A DNA stretch of 39,805 nt, from the UHGV virus genome UHGV-0211726, one strand, 5' to 3'. The notes beneath the pieces are model-generated. The model made no database searches. It was not told the DNA's origin and saw nothing but the letters and a program-made list of their open reading frames with translations. A program made the translations under genes and the position numbers. Positions within the stretch are counted from its first letter, which is position 1; each line of letters opens with the position of its first letter. This DNA comes from a virus. Below, piece after piece: positions 64 through 21,964 of the stretch.

Positions 64-288
64 CTAAGCGGTTTTCTCTTTTCGTATCAATGCTCCCTGA
101 ATAATCCGGCAACATCCATCTATAAGTTTTTTAACTTCCTCTTCTGTGCGATCCACATAACAATCATCATGTACTCGGATTGTTGCATTTTTTACTTTTA
201 CTGTTTCTACGATCAAAATCATCACCTCTCTACTATGTATGCAGGTTGGATTGTCCGAGATATGTTGTCCTACGTTTTTAATTAGCAT
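64..288 (-). CDS. hypothetical small protein (74 aa) downstream of the Bro gene
   Basis: ORF overlapping the Bro stop by 11 nt; no recognisable motifs. Confidence 0.25.
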   Translation of the reverse strand: MLIKNVGQHISDNPTCIHSREVMILIVETVKVKNATIRVHDDCYVDRTEEEVKKLIDGCCRIIQGALIRKEKTA

Positions 289-1087
289 CCGAATCTCTGA
301 CGATCACATGATATTTCTTTATCTGTCCATCGCACTGCGTGTATGGGATTTCTCTCGGATATCCATTATTTGCGTACCACTGCTTTACCATCCCAATCAC
401 TTCCGGCACATACTTTCTTACAGTTCCTTGCCACGTTCCCTTGGATTCCCATGTTTCCGTGTACATATCTTCTGACAAATCCAACCTGCGAATAATCTCA
501 TTCACAGCTTTGTCTGCCGGCTTGCCGGAACTCTGAAAGTAAAGTCTTGCTTGTCTTGCGATATGTACCGTATCCACATACTGCTGATCCGCTTCAATCG
601 TGATTGGAAGATTGACTCCTGCTTTCTCATAAAGAGATTTTGCAGTCAGGAGCTTGATTTTACTGTTGCATCCTGCTGCTTGGAGCATCGGTGTTAAAAT
701 CTTCACAGCATTGTTGACACTGGCGAGACGCTCGTTGCTTTGTTTCTTCTTTGGCATCTCATAGGAGCCGGTCTTGCGGAGGGTGGGAAGAACTTCGGAT
801 GTCACCCAGTGTTTGAATTCTTTTGCGGATTCTAATTTGCTACCGAAGATAAGGGCGTATAGACCGGATTCGTTAATTACTACTTGATTCGGGTTTCCTC
901 TTTTTCCGTCGGAAATCACGACGGTATTCTTATCTTCTTTCATTACATGTGTAGCAAGAGCATCTCTCGTATTTGCATATCCCAATGCTGTTGCCACATC
1001 TTTTCCAACAAACCACGGTTCATTGTCAATTGTCACTGTTCGGATTTTGCCGAACTCTTTGTTGTTAAAAATTTTTAATTCGTTCAT
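278..1087 (-). CDS. phage antirepressor, BRO-N N-terminal domain with KilA-C-like C-terminus
   Basis: N-terminal ...FGKIRTVTIDNEPWFVGKDVATALGY.NTRDAL... matches the Bro-N fold; 269 aa; sits in the leftward early operon. Confidence 0.75.
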   Translation of the reverse strand: MNELKIFNNKEFGKIRTVTIDNEPWFVGKDVATALGYANTRDALATHVMKEDKNTVVISDGKRGNPNQVVINESGLYALIFGSKLESAKEFKHWVTSEVLPTLRKTGSYEMPKKKQSNERLASVNNAVKILTPMLQAAGCNSKIKLLTAKSLYEKAGVNLPITIEADQQYVDTVHIARQARLYFQSSGKPADKAVNEIIRRLDLSEDMYTETWESKGTWQGTVRKYVPEVIGMVKQWYANNGYPREIPYTQCDGQIKKYHVIVRDSDAN

Positions 1088-1112
1088 TGCTTCTCCTTTC
1101 TGTTTTTGATGA

Positions 1113-1141
1113 TTGTAAATAAAATCTCATCATGGTAAAAT
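1113..1141 (+). promoter_or_regulatory. sigma-A promoter for the + strand moron: -35 TTGTAA (1113-1118), 17-bp spacer, extended -10 TGgTAAAAT (1133-1141)
   Basis: read directly from the sequence; RBS GGGGGAA 8 nt before ATG 1175. Confidence 0.5.
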
Positions 1142-1174
1142 ATATTTATTATTTCATGAGAATGGGGGAATTAT

Positions 1175-1576
1175 ATGCCACTTTTTTTGCAATATATCGG
1201 CTTTATCATTAGTATCTTTGGTTTTTTTATTACGATATTGACATTTATAGCAGCCAGTAGAGTTAATAAAAAAATCAAATCTCTTAATGAACTTAAAGAT
1301 TTTCACGTTCATAAAACAGAAATACTCAATCAGCTAGAGGGGTTCGTTCGTTCCATAAATAGTGACCAGTTGCAAGAAAGTGATACTGAATGCACTTTAT
1401 ATAATGGAATAACCCAATCGTTAACTGATATAGAATCTAGGTATACTAACCTTTCTTGGAAAACACGAAAAGCATTAACTTCTTTGCAGAAATATTTAAA
1501 ACGTGACAATTTTAAGTGGAATGAAATTGCCCTCAAACTTATAACTTTAAAAAATAGCATTGATAAGGAGATTTAA
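1175..1576 (+). CDS. hypothetical membrane-anchored protein (one N-terminal TM helix, 133 aa), first moron gene
   Basis: hydrophobic stretch FLQYIGFIISIFGFFITILTFIAA; AT-rich; opposite strand to the surrounding phage genes. Confidence 0.55.
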   Translation: MPLFLQYIGFIISIFGFFITILTFIAASRVNKKIKSLNELKDFHVHKTEILNQLEGFVRSINSDQLQESDTECTLYNGITQSLTDIESRYTNLSWKTRKALTSLQKYLKRDNFKWNEIALKLITLKNSIDKEI

Positions 1577-1578
1577 AT

Positions 1579-2001
1579 ATGGAAATAAATAAAAATGAAT
1601 CTTTCATCGAAAAATTATCATCTCAGACTATCAATTCCGAAATTTGCTGGAAACGCGCTACATCTTTCAATAAATTAGATTTTTCTTCTAACCCCGAGCT
1701 TGGAATCGTATTTTTTAACAATGAATATTGCACAATTGATTTTGAGAATTCCTTTTTTTCTCATATTGATTCCGCTAATATTTATATTGTTTTAAAACAA
1801 ATAGAATCCGGTCGCGATGGTTCCCGTGTAAAGAATTATTCAGTTTATCTACAGCAAGAAAGCAATAATGAAATTTCAAAACTTTCTTGTTCTCAAGCAG
1901 TTATTTACCAACTAGTAAATTCTATAAATTCTTATTTAGCAAAAAATAAATCGACTCTAAATGATTTTATAGATTCTTATCTTAAAAATTCTCAAAGTTA
2001 A
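1579..2001 (+). CDS. hypothetical cytoplasmic protein (140 aa), second moron gene, translationally coupled to the first
   Basis: AAGGAG RBS inside the end of the upstream gene; start 3 nt after the upstream stop. Confidence 0.55.
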   Translation: MEINKNESFIEKLSSQTINSEICWKRATSFNKLDFSSNPELGIVFFNNEYCTIDFENSFFSHIDSANIYIVLKQIESGRDGSRVKNYSVYLQQESNNEISKLSCSQAVIYQLVNSINSYLAKNKSTLNDFIDSYLKNSQS

Positions 2002-2015
2002 ATCCATGAATCCTT

Positions 2016-2049
2016 AAATCCTCTCTAATTCCAGGGAGGATTTTTTGTT
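2016..2049 (+). terminator. intrinsic terminator closing the moron
   Basis: stem aAATCCTCtc / gaGGAGGATTt (about 10 bp) followed by TTTTTTGTT. Confidence 0.6.
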
Positions 2050-2068
2050 ATCTTTCTCTTCATTTTTT

Positions 2069-2108
2069 TTAACTTTTTTTCCGTATTTATATACTGAAAA
2101 AAAGTTAA
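2069..2108. repeat. perfect 13-bp inverted repeat TTAACTTTTTTTC...GAAAAAAAGTTAA with a 14-nt spacer
   Basis: seen in sequence; no U-tract on either strand, so not a canonical terminator. Confidence 0.4.
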
Positions 2109-2232
2109 AAACTGTACTACTAAAGTAATAATATCTATCACTATCGTTATTGTTATGATCATGAAGCTTACCTCCTTTTTGACGATCATGCCTACTCTAA
2201 GAAATACTCAACTGATACGTTGAAGTAATCTG

Positions 2233-2895
2233 CTACGCCACAGATTCCAGATATGCAAGATCTTTCACGGTTTCCAGTCTCTTCTTGCAATCCTGGTAAA
2301 TCTCCTTGTAATGCTTTCCAGTTAATATTCCCGTGTCGATCACATGGAGAATGATGTTTTCCATCAGCGAAAGATTGTTCAGCTGCATAACTGTTGCTTC
2401 ATCACGTTTTCCAATTCCAGCCATCTTATTTGCCAGTTTTGAATAGGTCATGTAAAGCATCTCTGCGTGTGTGCTCCCCTGCCCTTTTGCGTATTCCACT
2501 AATTTCTGAATGGTGTCCGTCTCTGCTCTTCTGGTCAGTTTTCCGGCTTTTCTTGTTTCTACCCATGTCTGAGTTGTCTTTTCTTTGATGAACGCTTCCA
2601 TCTGATTAAATGCTTTGATGTAAGCCCATTTCCATTCCAGTGCTTTTTTACCGGTAAATCCCATTGCTAAGATAGAAAAGCCATCTCTATTCATTCGGTA
2701 CATCTTATTTGATTTTCCAGTACCATCTTTATAAGATGTTTTGCTGAAACACTGAACGCAATTTTGCGTTGAGTCATTTTCTATCAAATTTTCAATAGCT
2801 CTGATTACATCCGAATGTCTCTTTCCAAACTTCTCCGCCACCTGTAAGCTGTCACACACTGCTTCATCATTTTTTAAATATACGAGTTCTGTCAT
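2233..2895 (-). CDS. phage regulatory protein Rha (antirepressor family)
   Basis: N-terminal ...CDSLQVAEKFGKRHSDVIRAIENL... is typical of the Phage_pRha family; 220 aa. Confidence 0.7.
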   Translation of the reverse strand: MTELVYLKNDEAVCDSLQVAEKFGKRHSDVIRAIENLIENDSTQNCVQCFSKTSYKDGTGKSNKMYRMNRDGFSILAMGFTGKKALEWKWAYIKAFNQMEAFIKEKTTQTWVETRKAGKLTRRAETDTIQKLVEYAKGQGSTHAEMLYMTYSKLANKMAGIGKRDEATVMQLNNLSLMENIILHVIDTGILTGKHYKEIYQDCKKRLETVKDLAYLESVA

Positions 2896-2907
2896 TCGAC
2901 CATCCTT

Positions 2908-3138
2908 TCAAAGTTCAATATTTTGAACTTTTTCTTTAAAAAAATATTTAGGTATGTCTTCCTGTGCCAAATCTAGAAGTTCTACTGCTTTACAGATATC
3001 TGTCTGCTTCCACGGTCTCTCACTACTTAATTTCAAGCAAAGCGTTCTTTCTGACCATTCCATAGCTTCTGCAAATCTGTACTGAGTTCCGAACTTCTCA
3101 ATTATTCGACCTTTTAATTTGTCATAATTGAATGCCAT
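2908..3138 (-). CDS. Cro-like small HTH regulator (DUF739-like)
   Basis: 76 aa, divergent from the cI-like gene; first gene of the leftward operon. Confidence 0.55.
   Translation of the reverse strand: MAFNYDKLKGRIIEKFGTQYRFAEAMEWSERTLCLKLSSERPWKQTDICKAVELLDLAQEDIPKYFFKEKVQNIEL
2913..2928. promoter_or_regulatory. dyad operator-like site GTTCAATATTTTGAAC
   Basis: near-palindrome related to the 3155-3170 site; overlaps the 3' end of the cro-like gene, just upstream of rha. Confidence 0.4.
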
Positions 3139-3154
3139 TTTATCCTCCTTTCTT

Positions 3155-3170
3155 GTTCAAATATTTGAAC
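3155..3170. promoter_or_regulatory. perfect palindromic operator GTTCAAATATTTGAAC at the start of the Pcro transcript
   Basis: 16-bp perfect dyad; further TTGAAC half-sites at 3224-3229 and 3246-3251. Confidence 0.55.
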
Positions 3171-3177
3171 TATTTGT

Positions 3178-3206
3178 ATATTAGCACCCTTTTCAACCAT
3201 TGTCAA
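3178..3206 (-). promoter_or_regulatory. Pcro: -35 TTGACA (3201-3206), 17-bp spacer, -10 TAATAT (3178-3183) on the - strand
   Basis: consensus hexamers read from the reverse complement; RBS AAGGAGG before cro ATG at 3138. Confidence 0.6.
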
Positions 3207-3245
3207 TACAAAAGTTAATTTTTTTGAACTTTATTGTTTTTCATA

Positions 3246-3280
3246 TTGAACTTTTGTTTAGTGTATGGTATATTTATAAT
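3246..3280 (+). promoter_or_regulatory. PcI candidate: -35 TTGAAC (3246-3251), 17-bp spacer, -10 TATATT (3269-3274), with TATAAT at 3275-3280
   Basis: sits back-to-back with Pcro about 40 bp away; its -35 overlaps an operator half-site. Confidence 0.45.
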
Positions 3281-3300
3281 CAGAAAGGCGGTACATTTAT

Positions 3301-3870
3301 ATGAAGAAAGAAAGCACTTCTACTAGGCTAAAAAAGATTATGGAGACAAAGGGTCTTAGACAAGTAGACGTTCTGAAATTAACTGCACCATACTGTGAAC
3401 AATATGGGATAAAAATGAACAAATCAGATATAAGTCAATACTGTTCTGGAAAAAATGAACCTAATCAAGAAAAACTGTTCGTTTTAGGAAAAGCATTAAA
3501 CGTAAGCGAGTCATGGTTGATGGGATTTGACGTACCGATGGGACGTAACGACTACGAATTTAAAGATGCGATTGGCCCTGATAACCTTTCGTTTAATAAT
3601 GTTGAGGAATTCAAGAAAGCTTACGATCAAAGTATATTCAGGAAAAACAGATTAGAATATAAGCTTTTAGAGAACATGAGAAAGCTAAATAATAATGGAA
3701 AGAAAAGTCTTTTGAATTATTCTGAAATATTACTTGGAAATCCGAATTTTATAGAATCCAACAATCATTTAGAAGTATTAGCAGCTCATGAACGAACCGA
3801 CATTAAAGTAACAGATGAAATGAGAAAACACGATAAAGACATCATGATGGATGACTCTGAATGGGAGTGA
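3301..3870 (+). CDS. cI-like repressor, XRE-family HTH with C-terminal domain
   Basis: N-terminal HTH (LKKIMETKGLRQVDVLK...); divergent from cro; followed by ImmA. Confidence 0.7.
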   Translation: MKKESTSTRLKKIMETKGLRQVDVLKLTAPYCEQYGIKMNKSDISQYCSGKNEPNQEKLFVLGKALNVSESWLMGFDVPMGRNDYEFKDAIGPDNLSFNNVEEFKKAYDQSIFRKNRLEYKLLENMRKLNNNGKKSLLNYSEILLGNPNFIESNNHLEVLAAHERTDIKVTDEMRKHDKDIMMDDSEWE

Positions 3871-3874
3871 TACA

Positions 3875-4336
3875 ATGACGATTTATGAAGAACTTTTGGA
3901 AGAGGCGAATAATAGCGGACTGATTGTCCGCGAAAAGACTCTTTCCGGCAGTGATGGTTTAATATACAGAAATAGAATTGCGATATCCAACAGGCTGAAA
4001 ACATCCGCAGAAAAGGCTTGCGTCTTAGCTGAAGAAATCGGACATCACCATACTGCTGTCGGTGATATCTTTGATCTACAAGATATTGAAAGTATGAAGC
4101 AAGAACAAAAAGGAAGATTGCACGGGTATAACCGGATGATCGGATTGCGAGGCATCATATCAGCTTTTAATGCTGGATGCCAGAATAGATATGAAGTTGC
4201 AGAACATCTGCATGTCACAGAAGAATATCTGCAAGAAGCTATTGACTGCTACAAGGGAAAATACGGTGAGTATACCACTGTGGATAACTATGTTATTTAT
4301 TTTATTCCCAATTTAGCGGTTATGGAAATGATATGA
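3875..4336 (+). CDS. ImmA/IrrE-family zinc metallopeptidase (anti-repressor protease)
   Basis: HEXXH motif AEEIGHHHTAV; GGAGTGA RBS; typical partner immediately after an XRE repressor. Confidence 0.75.
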   Translation: MTIYEELLEEANNSGLIVREKTLSGSDGLIYRNRIAISNRLKTSAEKACVLAEEIGHHHTAVGDIFDLQDIESMKQEQKGRLHGYNRMIGLRGIISAFNAGCQNRYEVAEHLHVTEEYLQEAIDCYKGKYGEYTTVDNYVIYFIPNLAVMEMI

Positions 4337-4397: not shown

Positions 4398-5642
4398 ATG
4401 GGATTAAAAGATGTTTTTAATATCGGGAAAATAGCAAAGGAAAATGCTGGATTAAAAGAACTAATGTCTCCAGAATTTCAAAATGCGTCAGTCCTGAATT
4501 CAAAAGTTGCCGAGTTAGAGGCTAAAAAAGAGCGACTTGAAAAGGAAATCGACAAACGCACTTCTAAAATTGACACTTTGAAGAAGGAGGCGATATTTTT
4601 TGAAGATGCAATCACATTTCAGGAATTTGGTCTATATACGCCACGATATAATTTTGTTACGTCAGAAGAGTATAAAGAAGAATTAGATAACATTCGTGAT
4701 GCACAGAAAAAATTGATAAAAAGTGATAAAGCTATTATCGGAGCTACAACTTGGACGGTAAATGGAAGTAAAAGCAAAGGCAATAAAATGATTGCAGATA
4801 TGAAAAAATTGTTTTTGAGAGCGTTCAATAGCGATTGTGAAGATGTAATAAGCAAAGTGAAGTACAATAATTTTGATATGTCCCTTAAAAAGATTCATCA
4901 ATCCGCAAACTCTATTGAAAGACTTGGTAAATCCATGTCCTTAAAGATTACCCCAAAATATATAGACTGGAAAGAAGAAGAACTTACATTAGCCTTTGAG
5001 TATCAGCAAAAGAAGCAGGAAGAGAAAGAAGCTCAAAAAGCTGCAAGAGCAGAGATGCGCGAAGCCGCACGACTCCAAAAAGAAATTGAAGCTCAACGTA
5101 AGAAGATAGAAAAAGAACAAACTCACTACCAGACAGCTTACGAAAAACTTCTCAAGCAATTAGAAGAAAATCCAGATAATGCAGATCTGCTTACCAAAAA
5201 ATCCGAATTGGAAAATCAGCTCAATGACATAGATAAGGCTATTAAAGATATCGACTACAGAGAAGCAAATCAGCGTGCTGGATATGTTTACATAATTTCA
5301 AATATTGGAGCCTTTGGAGAAAACGTTTATAAGATTGGGATGACCAGACGCTTGGATCCTCAGGATCGTGTTGATGAACTAGGTGATGCATCTGTTCCAT
5401 TTAATTTTGATGTACATGCCATGATCTTCTCTGATGATGCACCGGCATTAGAAGCAGCACTTCATAAAGCTTTTGAAGATCGTAAACTAAATATGGTCAA
5501 CACAAGAAGAGAATTCTTCAACGTAACACTCGATGAGATAAAAGAAGTCGTAAAGAAAAACTTCGATAAGACTGTAGAGTTTATTGACGTACCAGATGCT
5601 GAACAATTTAGGGTAAGTCAGAAAATGAAGCGAAAACAATAA
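4398..5642 (+). CDS. DUF4041-type coiled-coil protein with C-terminal T5orf172 (GIY-YIG-like) domain
   Basis: C-terminal GYVYIISNIGAFGENVYKIGMTRRLDPQDRVDELGD...FNFDVHAMIF matches the T5orf172 signature; long KE-rich coiled coil in the middle. Confidence 0.6.
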   Translation: MGLKDVFNIGKIAKENAGLKELMSPEFQNASVLNSKVAELEAKKERLEKEIDKRTSKIDTLKKEAIFFEDAITFQEFGLYTPRYNFVTSEEYKEELDNIRDAQKKLIKSDKAIIGATTWTVNGSKSKGNKMIADMKKLFLRAFNSDCEDVISKVKYNNFDMSLKKIHQSANSIERLGKSMSLKITPKYIDWKEEELTLAFEYQQKKQEEKEAQKAARAEMREAARLQKEIEAQRKKIEKEQTHYQTAYEKLLKQLEENPDNADLLTKKSELENQLNDIDKAIKDIDYREANQRAGYVYIISNIGAFGENVYKIGMTRRLDPQDRVDELGDASVPFNFDVHAMIFSDDAPALEAALHKAFEDRKLNMVNTRREFFNVTLDEIKEVVKKNFDKTVEFIDVPDAEQFRVSQKMKRKQ

Positions 5643-5827: not shown

Positions 5828-7360
5828 ATGTCTTATTTTATCTATGCTAGAAAATCCAGAAAAGACGCCGAACTGGAAGCGCTGGGGATTGATGTTCTGG
5901 AACGCCACATTACTACCCTGTTAGAGTTGGCAAAGACGCTCTCTCTTCCGATCGGTGCGATTTACCGGGAAGTTGTGTCTGGAGACAGTATTGATGCCCG
6001 CCCAGTCATGACGCAAGTCCTCTCTGAGGTAGAAGCCTGTATGTGGGATGGTGCCCTCGTAATGGACGTAGATCGTCTGGCCAGAGGTGATACGATCGAT
6101 CAGGGACGTGTGCAGCGTGCATTTTTTTATTCCAACACCCGGATTGTAACACCGAATAAAACCTACGATCCTGCAAATGAGTATGATAATGAGTACTTTG
6201 AGTTCAGTTTATTTATGAGCCGCCGGGAGTACGCCACAATCAAGCGCCGAATGCAGCGTGGCAGGGAACGTTCCAGTTCTGACGGTTATTACGTTGGCAA
6301 TGTTGCCCCTTATGGATGGGAGCGCGTCATTGCGCCGGATGGAAAACACTACTCTCTCGCCCCACATCAGACAGAAGCACCCGTCCTTGATCTAATGTAT
6401 GATCTGTGCGGAAATAAGCAGTACGGATACCAGAAAGCCTGTACCTATATGTCCAATATGGGAATCCTTGCAAGGAGTGGTAAACCTTTTACGCCCTCTA
6501 CTTTAAAAGGGATTATCTCAAATCCAGCAAACATCGGTAAAGTCCGCTGGGGGCATCGTAAGACTGTCAGGGCTGTAAAAGATGGGCGTGTAGTAAAGTC
6601 CCGTCCAAAAGCCACAGATTACATCCTCTCAGATGCGGCATGGGCGCCACGGATCAGCCCAGACTTATTTAAACGCGCGAACCAACCAAAAGGATGTTTT
6701 TCTGCTCCAGTCAGAAACGACAGACCGATACAAAATCTATTTGCAGGTCTGGTCAGATGCTCACAATGCGATCGGCTTATGGTCCGTAAGAAAGCGCAAA
6801 CGAAAACGCCCTATGATATGCTGATCTGTCAGTATACAGAGTGCTCCACAGTCGGGATCCGGATTGATGAACTGGAAGAAGCTCTTCTGGGGTGGCTGAA
6901 AGACTACATAGCCAAATATGAATTTGCTGACACTCACGAGGAAGATACTGCTGCTATTGCCGCAAAAGAATTGATCGTCACAAATTTTGAGACCGAACAT
7001 CAGACGCTTTTAAAACAGAGGGAATCCTTATTTGATTTTTTAGAGCAGGGAATTTACACAAAAGAAATTTTTATTGAGCGTTCGAATGCACTGGAGCAGC
7101 GGATCAGAGACTGCATGAATAACATCACTGCTGCCCGTGAAGATTTGCATACCACAATCGCAAGACAGGCAAACCGGAAAAATTTTGTGCCGAAGTGCAA
7201 GAATTTATTGAGTGAGTGGGACTCTCTGACTGTCTCGGAAAAGAACAGCGCCTTGAGACAGCTGATTGACAGGATTGTTCTGACTAAGACGAAACGGAAC
7301 AAGAAAAACCAGAAAAACTCTGAATTCACAATCGATGTGTACCCGAAAGTGCCGAAATAA
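5828..7360 (+). CDS. large serine recombinase (integrase)
   Basis: N-terminal YARKSRKD catalytic-serine motif, recombinase domain and zinc ribbon (CSQCDRLMVRKK...LICQYTEC); 510 aa. Confidence 0.85.
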   Translation: MSYFIYARKSRKDAELEALGIDVLERHITTLLELAKTLSLPIGAIYREVVSGDSIDARPVMTQVLSEVEACMWDGALVMDVDRLARGDTIDQGRVQRAFFYSNTRIVTPNKTYDPANEYDNEYFEFSLFMSRREYATIKRRMQRGRERSSSDGYYVGNVAPYGWERVIAPDGKHYSLAPHQTEAPVLDLMYDLCGNKQYGYQKACTYMSNMGILARSGKPFTPSTLKGIISNPANIGKVRWGHRKTVRAVKDGRVVKSRPKATDYILSDAAWAPRISPDLFKRANQPKGCFSAPVRNDRPIQNLFAGLVRCSQCDRLMVRKKAQTKTPYDMLICQYTECSTVGIRIDELEEALLGWLKDYIAKYEFADTHEEDTAAIAAKELIVTNFETEHQTLLKQRESLFDFLEQGIYTKEIFIERSNALEQRIRDCMNNITAAREDLHTTIARQANRKNFVPKCKNLLSEWDSLTVSEKNSALRQLIDRIVLTKTKRNKKNQKNSEFTIDVYPKVPK

Positions 7361-7488: not shown

Positions 7489-7668
7489 TCAGGACGACAA
7501 CTCCATCCGTCCAACACTCATATACGCAGCCCGTAAAAAGATGTGCATCATTTCGGTTGTCAGGATCATCCCTTCTGGCAACCGGAACTTAAAAGTATTA
7601 CCTGGTATCTCCAAAAACTCTTGGTAAAGCAAAAATGTATCGTAAGATTCGTAGATCTGATATTCCAT
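7489..7668 (-). CDS. hypothetical 59-aa protein with a strong RBS, between the lysin terminator and attP
   Basis: GAGGGGGAACAAGT-ATG; preferred over the overlapping + strand ORF 7543-7758, which lacks an RBS. Confidence 0.35.
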   Translation of the reverse strand: MEYQIYESYDTFLLYQEFLEIPGNTFKFRLPEGMILTTEMMHIFLRAAYMSVGRMELSS

Positions 7669-7699
7669 ACTTGTTCCCCCTCTTGTATTAACTACATAT

Positions 7700-7728
7700 A
7701 TTATAGCACAGAGGGGTTTGAATTGAAT
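7700..7728 (-). promoter_or_regulatory. extended -10 promoter TGcTATAAT (revcomp of 7700-7708) for the 59-aa ORF
   Basis: read from the reverse complement; weak -35 ATTCAA 17 bp upstream. Confidence 0.4.
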
Positions 7729-21853: not shown

Positions 21854-21964
21854 CTATTCAATTTTTCCGCACTTTGTACAACGTCTAACATATCCCTTTG
21901 TAGCCTTGTTGTAGTGCTTGCAATACTTGTGTTCGCAGAATCTCTGCTTCAACCATTTGAACAT
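21854..21964 (-). CDS. 36-aa zinc-ribbon-like peptide (CxxH...CxH...CxxC)
   Basis: perfect RBS AGGAGGAGAT-ATG; sequence MFKWLKQRFCEHKYCKHYNKATKGYVRRCTKCGKIE. Confidence 0.35.
   Translation of the reverse strand: MFKWLKQRFCEHKYCKHYNKATKGYVRRCTKCGKIE

Follow-up and report, generated by a model that had tools for sequence, protein, structure and literature searches.

A conserved gene pair antisense to the early lytic operon of Mediterraneibacter gnavus prophages, a candidate phage-exclusion moron

What is a two-gene cassette doing on the strand opposite to an early lytic operon, close to the genetic switch of a gut prophage? This question is raised by UHGV virus genome UHGV-0211726, analysed as a stretch of 39,805 nucleotides (nt) that we call the window, in which two small plus-strand genes, here named A and B, lie between the antirepressor genes Bro and Rha. 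The original prediction, made from the sequence alone, saw in them a moron expressed in the lysogen and a candidate superinfection-exclusion or abortive-infection module. Morons, as known from lambdoid phages, are transcription units in their own right that lie inserted among conserved genes. The sequence in the window belongs to a temperate siphovirus of Mediterraneibacter (Ruminococcus) gnavus. Both proteins recur, identical or nearly so, in M. gnavus genomes and in 'Siphoviridae sp. ctxBC2', and 13-16% of the window's first 20 kb matches, at 76-80% identity, R. gnavus phages that have been isolated (phiRgPS_6, phiRg519T2, and others; PMC10072058). We find that A and B form a conserved unit, and we propose, with confidence somewhat short of even, that they may act as a lysogen-expressed, membrane-acting exclusion or abortive-infection pair.

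Conservation and expression signals of the A-B cassette

Open reading frames (ORFs), hydropathy, and Pfam matches confirm that a membrane-anchored A of 133 amino acids (aa) and a B of 140 aa lie on the plus strand between Bro and Rha, as originally claimed (Table 1). The two genes also travel together. A survey with hidden Markov models (HMMs) covering 57 sequence records (the window and retrieved loci) placed an A homolog directly upstream, and on the same strand, of every B gene that does not encode a lipoprotein and is preceded by some 420 nt or more of sequence, in about 13 lineages, the only exceptions being truncations at contig ends. The pairing persists where identity to the B of the window drops to 19-30%, and in three such loci (L022, L025, and L028) the gene ahead of B encodes a distant homolog of A (hhalign probability 90-98%). 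Relatives of A at 47-53% identity are, every one, 133 aa long. For B, relatives were found at 45-54% identity, and a profile search returned 80 cluster representatives at the 50% clustering level, nearly all of 103-160 aa; the exceptions are three longer paralogs and a small number of gene fragments. Comparison of the four lineages with the best sampling gave ratios of nonsynonymous to synonymous substitution rates (dN/dS) of 0.14-0.39 in gene A and 0.13-0.27 in gene B, synonymous sites being close to saturation. On this comparative evidence A and B are real genes under purifying selection that form a unit.

The signals expected of an independent transcription unit are also present. An extended -10 promoter stands at the site claimed for it, with a predicted transcription start near 1148. 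A consensus scan of 6 kb found 26 such sites against 20 expected, which means that the match alone is not above chance and that the case for a promoter rests on its conserved position. Among 10 diverged lineages, seven carry a TGnTAnAAT extended -10 element, placed 38-60 nt ahead of A, and the remaining three carry a near-match to it (background 0.055 per 130 nt), while a TTGnnn -35 box lies 17 nt further upstream in most lineages. The terminator proposed downstream of B was confirmed at the sequence level; the stem (2016-2043) with its U-tract has a folding free energy (dG) of -13.7 kcal/mol (z -2.85), and none of 200 shuffled sequences folds equally well. Its reverse strand folds more weakly and has no T-run; by its sequence, the terminator is an element that acts on the plus strand only. 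Terminators were checked in four lineages (the window's, L001, L006, and L010) and were found in all four, the hairpins and U-tracts after B in the latter three having different stem sequences and dG values of -12 to -19.4. Overall, the expression signals are conserved while the surrounding sequence is not.

The translational coupling of the original prediction is likewise supported, given that only 2 nt separate the stop codon of A from the start of B and that the Shine-Dalgarno sequence of B lies within the last codons of A. The C-terminal 'EKE' motif of A doubles as the purine-rich ribosome-binding site of B in seven of the eight junctions examined, the exception being that of L025, where the two genes overlap by 16 nt. 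The conspicuous AT-richness was borne out too, the guanine-cytosine (GC) fraction of the cassette being 0.285 compared with 0.43 to its left and 0.36 to its right. In each of the seven lineages tested, the pair has a lower GC fraction than the flanking sequence, most extremely in L022 (GC 0.34 vs. 0.59 and 0.50).

These features are carried by a discrete block that reaches from the start codon of Bro to the stop codon of Rha and is 97.7-100% identical in eight prophages (L012-L019). The flanks of the same prophages have diverged, with Bro 83-100% identical and Rha 92-94% identical or absent, and their repressor, cro-like, integrase, replication, and accessory genes differ beside the shared cassette. 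Gut metagenome contigs recorded with the cassette number in the hundreds. No match to A or B, as DNA or protein, was found in 50,697 INPHARED phage records, including those of the related isolated phiRg phages, and a scan of GTDB species representatives for the pair gave no match. A short contig, L032, was considered as a transcript-like boundary of the cassette and was rejected, as it contains part of Bro and is hence DNA. Like lambdoid morons, the cassette has its own promoter and terminator, a deviant base composition, and a patchy presence among related phages, and it sits between two genes of one operon. Unlike the typical lambdoid moron, it is antisense to its host operon and consists of a conserved, co-evolving pair of genes, possibly a triplet with the convergent gene C discussed below, rather than a single gene. 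The moron architecture of the original prediction is thus strongly supported by comparison, as the block shows every property of a moron that can be judged from sequence (promoter and terminator, composition, and discrete, patchy occurrence).

That A and B are instead ordinary early or middle phage genes, or spurious ORFs, has become very improbable and is largely refuted. Both are small and lack an assigned function, as do many early phage proteins, and the single promoter match, which does not by itself exceed chance, also favours this explanation. However, the pair lies on the strand opposite to the whole early operon, with a conserved promoter and terminator of its own, both genes are under purifying selection, the block stands out at about 100% conservation amid diverged flanks, and the pair is absent from the related isolated phages. 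In one of these, phiRg519T2 (L029, MT980838.1), the interval between Rha and a Bro-like gene is occupied by another small gene of the repressor strand (7499-7723), gp27, which encodes a hypothetical protein of 74 aa. Antisense cargo therefore seems to be lodged in this interval repeatedly.

Position at the lysis-lysogeny switch

Where the neighbouring genes could be called, the pair shares the strand of cI, runs antisense to the early operon in which it sits, and is about 0.3-2.5 kb away from cI/cro. This placement holds across serine and tyrosine integrases, S24- and ImmA-type repressor systems, and differing replication modules. The antirepressor setting emphasized in the original prediction stands for the window, where Bro and Rha do flank the pair, but not as a link, as diverged A-B copies adjoin cro/cI without Bro or Rha and the close relatives L013 and L018 lack Rha. 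A functional connection to the Bro and Rha antirepressors was considered and rejected on account of these diverged copies.

The best promoter match of the region (TTGACA, 17 nt, TGnTAATAT, 3206-3178, minus strand) is directed leftward into the DUF739 cro-like gene. Together with the layout of the switch genes (Table 1), this promoter marks the plus strand as the lysogeny strand and the minus strand as that of the early lytic operon. Two perfect GTTCAA-N4-TTGAAC palindromes flank the cro-like gene (2913-2928 and 3155-3170), where 0.15 would be expected by chance in the window; the only further match in the window, at 21947, has one mismatch. From their sequence and position these palindromes are probably the cI/Cro operators. 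They occur at 2913 and 3155 and not at the cassette promoter, and no significant operator-like inverted repeat was found at that promoter in any of the 10 lineages. The unchanged cassette beside different repressors and the lack of an operator at its promoter argue for a promoter that is independent of the repressor. No terminator on the minus strand was found between C and Bro, and lytic transcription should therefore cross the cassette in antisense. With the cassette head-on to the early lytic operon and just downstream of the cI/cro switch, expression in the lysogen and silencing upon lytic firing are expected.

Facing the cassette promoter, and overlapping it, the minus strand has a weak promoter-like site (1112-1139; TTTACC, 16 nt, TACAAT) a short way upstream of Bro, which might therefore own a promoter rather than depend on read-through only. 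An Rfam scan of 800-3400 gave no match.

The known single-gene defence system PD-Lambda-1 is placed between the ImmA-like gene and the serine recombinase gene of the window. Sister prophages have DUF5067, DUF4429/SHOCT, PemK-like, or DUF4236 genes in this slot instead, and the differing cargo marks it as a variable accessory or defence hot spot.

Table 1. Coordinates of the cassette, its signals, and the neighbouring genes in the window
Feature	Position	Strand	Evidence or remark
Whole mosaic module	1088-2232		Bro start codon to Rha stop codon
Extended -10 promoter, TTGTAA (1113-1118), 17 nt, TGgTAAAAT (1133-1141)	1113-1141	+	Consensus scan
Shine-Dalgarno GGGGGA for A	1164-1169	+	5 nt ahead of ATG at 1175, from sequence
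Gene A, 133 aa	1175-1576	+	ORF
Shine-Dalgarno AAGGAG for B	1565-1570	+	Made by the conserved C-terminal K-E codons of A
Gene B, 140 aa	1579-2001	+	ORF
Intrinsic terminator, 11-bp stem, 6-nt loop, U-tract	2016-2049	+	Stem 2016-2043
Gene C, 45-aa membrane peptide with lysine-rich tail	2025-2162	-	Convergent with B on the lytic strand; length 45 aa also in the gene calls of L012-L019
Bro-N gene	278-1087	-	Pfam, E 8e-29
Rha gene (Phage_pRha)	2233-2895	-	Pfam, E 3e-31
DUF739 cro-like gene	2908-3138	-	
Helix-turn-helix (HTH) repressor	3301-3870	+	
ImmA-like M78 peptidase	3851-4336	+	
PD-Lambda-1 defence gene (DUF4041/SNIPE + T5orf172)	4398-5642	+	PADLOC, E 2e-155
Serine recombinase	5828-7360	+	

Proteins A and B and the convergent gene C

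Protein A is basic, with an isoelectric point (pI) of 9.2, and has one hydrophobic segment at residues 8-26 (Kyte-Doolittle hydropathy, KD19, 2.53), followed by five K/R within the next 15 residues, an arrangement that predicts an N-out/C-in topology. Its AlphaFold2 (AF2) model has a predicted local distance difference test (pLDDT) score of 79 and shows the membrane helix continuing into a cytoplasmic four-helix bundle; a separately predicted BFVD model of the identical protein superposes on it with a template modelling (TM) score of 0.98. The conserved residues of the membrane helix (Q6, F10, S13, F17, T20, F24, A27, and N31) recur at a spacing of 3-4 and fall on a single face (helical moment 0.42, p about 0.008). 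This pattern suggests that the helix may contact another helix, either of A itself or of a host membrane protein. With A as the query, a profile search of PDB sequences returned a designed repeat protein and nothing else, and none of its matched stretches passed alone.

Protein B is acidic (pI 5.15) and lacks both a hydrophobic segment and a signal peptide, as expected of a soluble protein. The opposite charges of A and B are compatible with a putative complex. The family alignment of B is marked by an N-terminal helix FIxKLxxxTxxxxIxW, an NEF/Y motif, an ESG(R/K)DG hairpin, and a C-terminal FIDxYL motif, and B belongs to a new, putatively alpha/beta family. Some distant members, P0077 (L024), P0098 (L030 1069-1623), P0085 (L031 854-1786), and P0095, have lipoprotein or signal-anchor N-termini, and P0085 contains two tandem B domains. 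The lipoprotein-type paralogs have no A partner. Judging from these paralogs, the B domain resembles a binding module more than an enzyme, is not confined to prophages, and also exists as a cell-surface module outside them.

The absence of a recognisable family for either protein, noted in the original prediction, held in every search made. When A, B, and C were scanned against Pfam, PHROGs, NCBIfam, and PADLOC, no match rose above chance level, and none of the three proteins contained a known toxin or antitoxin domain. Against PADLOC-DB 2.0.0 the window's A, B, and C had zero matches at E<=1, and a PADLOC scan of 67 B-family members, five A-like proteins, and three C-like proteins gave isolated matches at chance level only. 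Pfam, PHROGs, PADLOC, and PDB searches of the 67 B-family members found nothing consistent, and a PDB sequence-profile search with B had no match. The PHROGs and Pfam scans revealed no homology to ordinary phage early proteins. On the strength of these scans, A and B come from no described protein family.

The lipoprotein paralogs and the lack of a defence signature in PADLOC also bear on a different role for the pair, in lysogenic conversion or regulation rather than defence. It might modify a host membrane process, or affect the prophage's own decision on lysis, lysogeny, or induction, in that case perhaps partly by transcriptional interference with the early operon. The constant place of the cassette beside the cI/cro switch, head-on to the early operon, agrees with such a role, as does the occurrence of B-domain paralogs as host surface lipoproteins outside prophages. 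However, the cassette is unchanged among prophages with different immunity regions, which speaks against a role tied to one repressor system, and purifying selection on both proteins indicates a function beyond the mere act of transcription. We regard this explanation as unlikely, though with a real chance of being right.

The original prediction did not include a third gene, C, which overlaps the terminator and moves with the pair. Gene C is part of the conserved block, has a strong Shine-Dalgarno sequence (AAGGAGG, 2177-2171), and ends with a stop codon inside the terminator stem of B. A similar convergent membrane peptide is encoded in seven of seven lineages of the closer subclade (B identity at least 33%). 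In three loci (L010 6377-6450, L037 6364-6415, and L039 about 6392-6440) the C-terminus of the convergent small protein repeats the FIDxYL-type motif of B (p < 0.004 vs. shuffles). The repeats are encoded by adjacent inverted DNA arms in which the inverted repeat is only partial or absent, and the copied motif could reflect either peptide mimicry or the relic of an inverted duplication. The FIDxYL-type tail is not present in the window's C, which ends in the terminator hairpin. A very AT-rich inverted repeat of 21 nt (2066-2111; 95% complementary, 4-nt loop) lies within the C ORF just past the cassette terminator, with no T-run after it on either strand.

A small, translationally coupled two-gene operon whose 3' end is overlapped by a convergent small gene invites comparison with a toxin-antitoxin or addiction module that stabilises the prophage, in which A would be a membrane toxin restrained by B or C. 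The conserved face of the A helix is compatible with the oligomerisation that such a toxin might need. However, no known toxin or antitoxin domain supports this comparison, B has no DNA-binding motif detectable by Pfam, and the usual signature of autoregulation is missing, given that in none of 10 lineages does the promoter have a significant inverted repeat. We give this explanation a slim chance; it overlaps with an abortive-infection (Abi) model and does not exclude it.

Candidate functions and known systems

Defence has been proven for prophage-encoded pairs that combine a membrane protein with a cytoplasmic one, as in RexAB, Sbash gp30/31, and Butters gp30/31 (PMC6426596, PMC7542560). The A-B cassette resembles lambda RexA/RexB, mycobacteriophage Sbash gp30/gp31, and Gordonia phage CarolAnn gp43/gp44 in being a two-gene prophage unit beside the immunity region, with a membrane and a cytoplasmic partner and predicted expression in the lysogen (PMC6426596, PMC7542560). 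The logic that we propose, a cytoplasmic sensor acting on a membrane effector, would also be of the RexAB type, in which infection triggers depolarisation of the membrane and phage growth is aborted. The resemblance does not extend to sequence or domains, since B and all 67 family members scanned lack a match to DUF4747, the domain of the RexAB-type cytoplasmic partner. The membrane partner of these systems has four membrane helices, whereas A has one helix and a cytoplasmic helical bundle; moreover, the gene for the membrane protein comes first in the cassette and both proteins are much smaller. The proteins gp30 and gp31 of mycobacteriophage Butters are expressed in the lysogen and interact functionally, the cytoplasmic protein being the active inhibitor that the membrane protein attenuates (PMC7542560). 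Like A-B, they are a syntenic cytoplasmic/membrane pair whose synteny is kept across homologs (PMC7542560), but gp31 crosses the membrane with four helices, its gene and that of gp30 come in the opposite order, and the sequences are unrelated. The TP-J34 exclusion lipoprotein Ltp (IPR011434) has a lipoprotein signal peptide and Ltp repeat domains, neither of which is found in the window's B. Ltp Pfam models had no match in the scanned B-family members, which include the lipoprotein paralogs P0077 and P0098 and do not include P0085.

Two-component membrane superinfection-exclusion (Sie) systems occur in Gram-positive (lactococcal) prophages, where their logic has been established in part (PMC7693887). 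The pair could accordingly be of an injection-blocking kind, in which A stops phage DNA entry at the membrane, as do Sie2009 and P22 SieA, B is a cytoplasmic accessory, and the cell is not killed. Exclusion of the Sie2009 type blocks DNA injection and leaves adsorption unaffected. In gross shape A matches the lactococcal Sie proteins of the Sie2009 type, as a 133-aa protein with a membrane helix at residues 8-26, and a two-component variant, SieF7/2AB, exists (PMC7693887). Through its conserved face, the A helix might engage a host membrane protein that takes part in DNA entry, and the cassette lies on the lysogeny strand. However, the bulk of A is predicted to be cytoplasmic, unlike that of Sie2009-type proteins; the positive-inside rule leaves only about 2-5 residues of A outside, and the conserved domain of A as well as B would be in the cytoplasm. 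A soluble partner and a counter-peptide from the lytic strand are easier to explain with an intracellular sensor and effector. Neither A nor B is related in sequence to any Sie family in Pfam or PHROGs, and B lacks the metalloprotease-like zinc motif of the SieF7/2AB partner, with which it shares no homology. Sie genes are also found between the repressor and integrase genes, a slot that PD-Lambda-1 occupies in the window, whereas the pair lies beyond cro/Rha inside the early operon. An injection-blocking function therefore seems rather improbable to us. As far as sequence and database membership go, the pair is not a homolog of the RexAB family, of Sie2009, or of Ltp, nor is it in PADLOC, and it works at most like those systems.

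Predicted expression in the lysogen, predicted silence in the lytic cycle, and a membrane protein with a cytoplasmic partner together fit exclusion or abortive infection best. In this preferred model, the extended -10 promoter would be constitutive and repressor-independent and would drive a bicistronic mRNA of about 0.9 kb in the lysogen, with B translated by coupling to A. The strong, one-way terminator would end the transcript ahead of its antisense entry into cro and Rha. A and B may then form a membrane-associated complex that guards the lysogen against other phages, B being a cytoplasmic sensor or regulator and A a membrane effector that self-associates, or docks on a host membrane protein, through its conserved helix face. 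Once the lytic promoter fires, head-on transcription would run over the cassette and switch A and B off, and C may counteract them during the lytic growth of the phage itself. A more specific version of exclusion, to which we assign a low probability, is a hitherto undescribed three-part system of Lachnospiraceae prophages. In this scheme, A would be a single-pass effector that oligomerises via the conserved polar/aromatic face of its helix, B a cytoplasmic sensor of new fold, and C an antidote made from the lytic strand; in L010, L037, and L039, C would displace B from A upon lytic firing, and head-on transcription would at that point stop the synthesis of A and B.

Several observations weigh against a defence function. 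Many morons serve other roles, and neither A nor B has a homology or fold match among defence proteins. The fold matches of A are generic helical bundles only, and its single membrane helix contrasts with the four-helix channel partners of Rex-type systems, while the model of B is poor (pLDDT 56). P0098, the sole lipoprotein paralog on a long enough contig, lies in an ordinary chromosomal gene neighbourhood, and paralogs of this kind imply that the B domain is not intrinsically devoted to phage defence. If the cassette has no anti-phage role, it is an ordinary moron. Nevertheless, in view of its predicted regulation and its analogy to established pairs, we consider the defence reading of A-B plausible.

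The prevalent gut species M. gnavus has been tied to inflammatory bowel disease, and work is under way on the use of its phages to edit the microbiota. Lysogens of R. gnavus show unexplained resistance in published host-range data (PMC10072058, PMC13435783). If the cassette excludes other phages, two protein families without described relatives would make up a defence system that explains part of this lysogen resistance. Defence candidates of such a kind are common in prophages; what sets this one apart is the strict co-evolution of its genes, their antisense placement at the switch, and their prevalence in a medically relevant gut species. The conserved antisense placement neatly illustrates a way in which a phage may restrict an accessory function to lysogeny.

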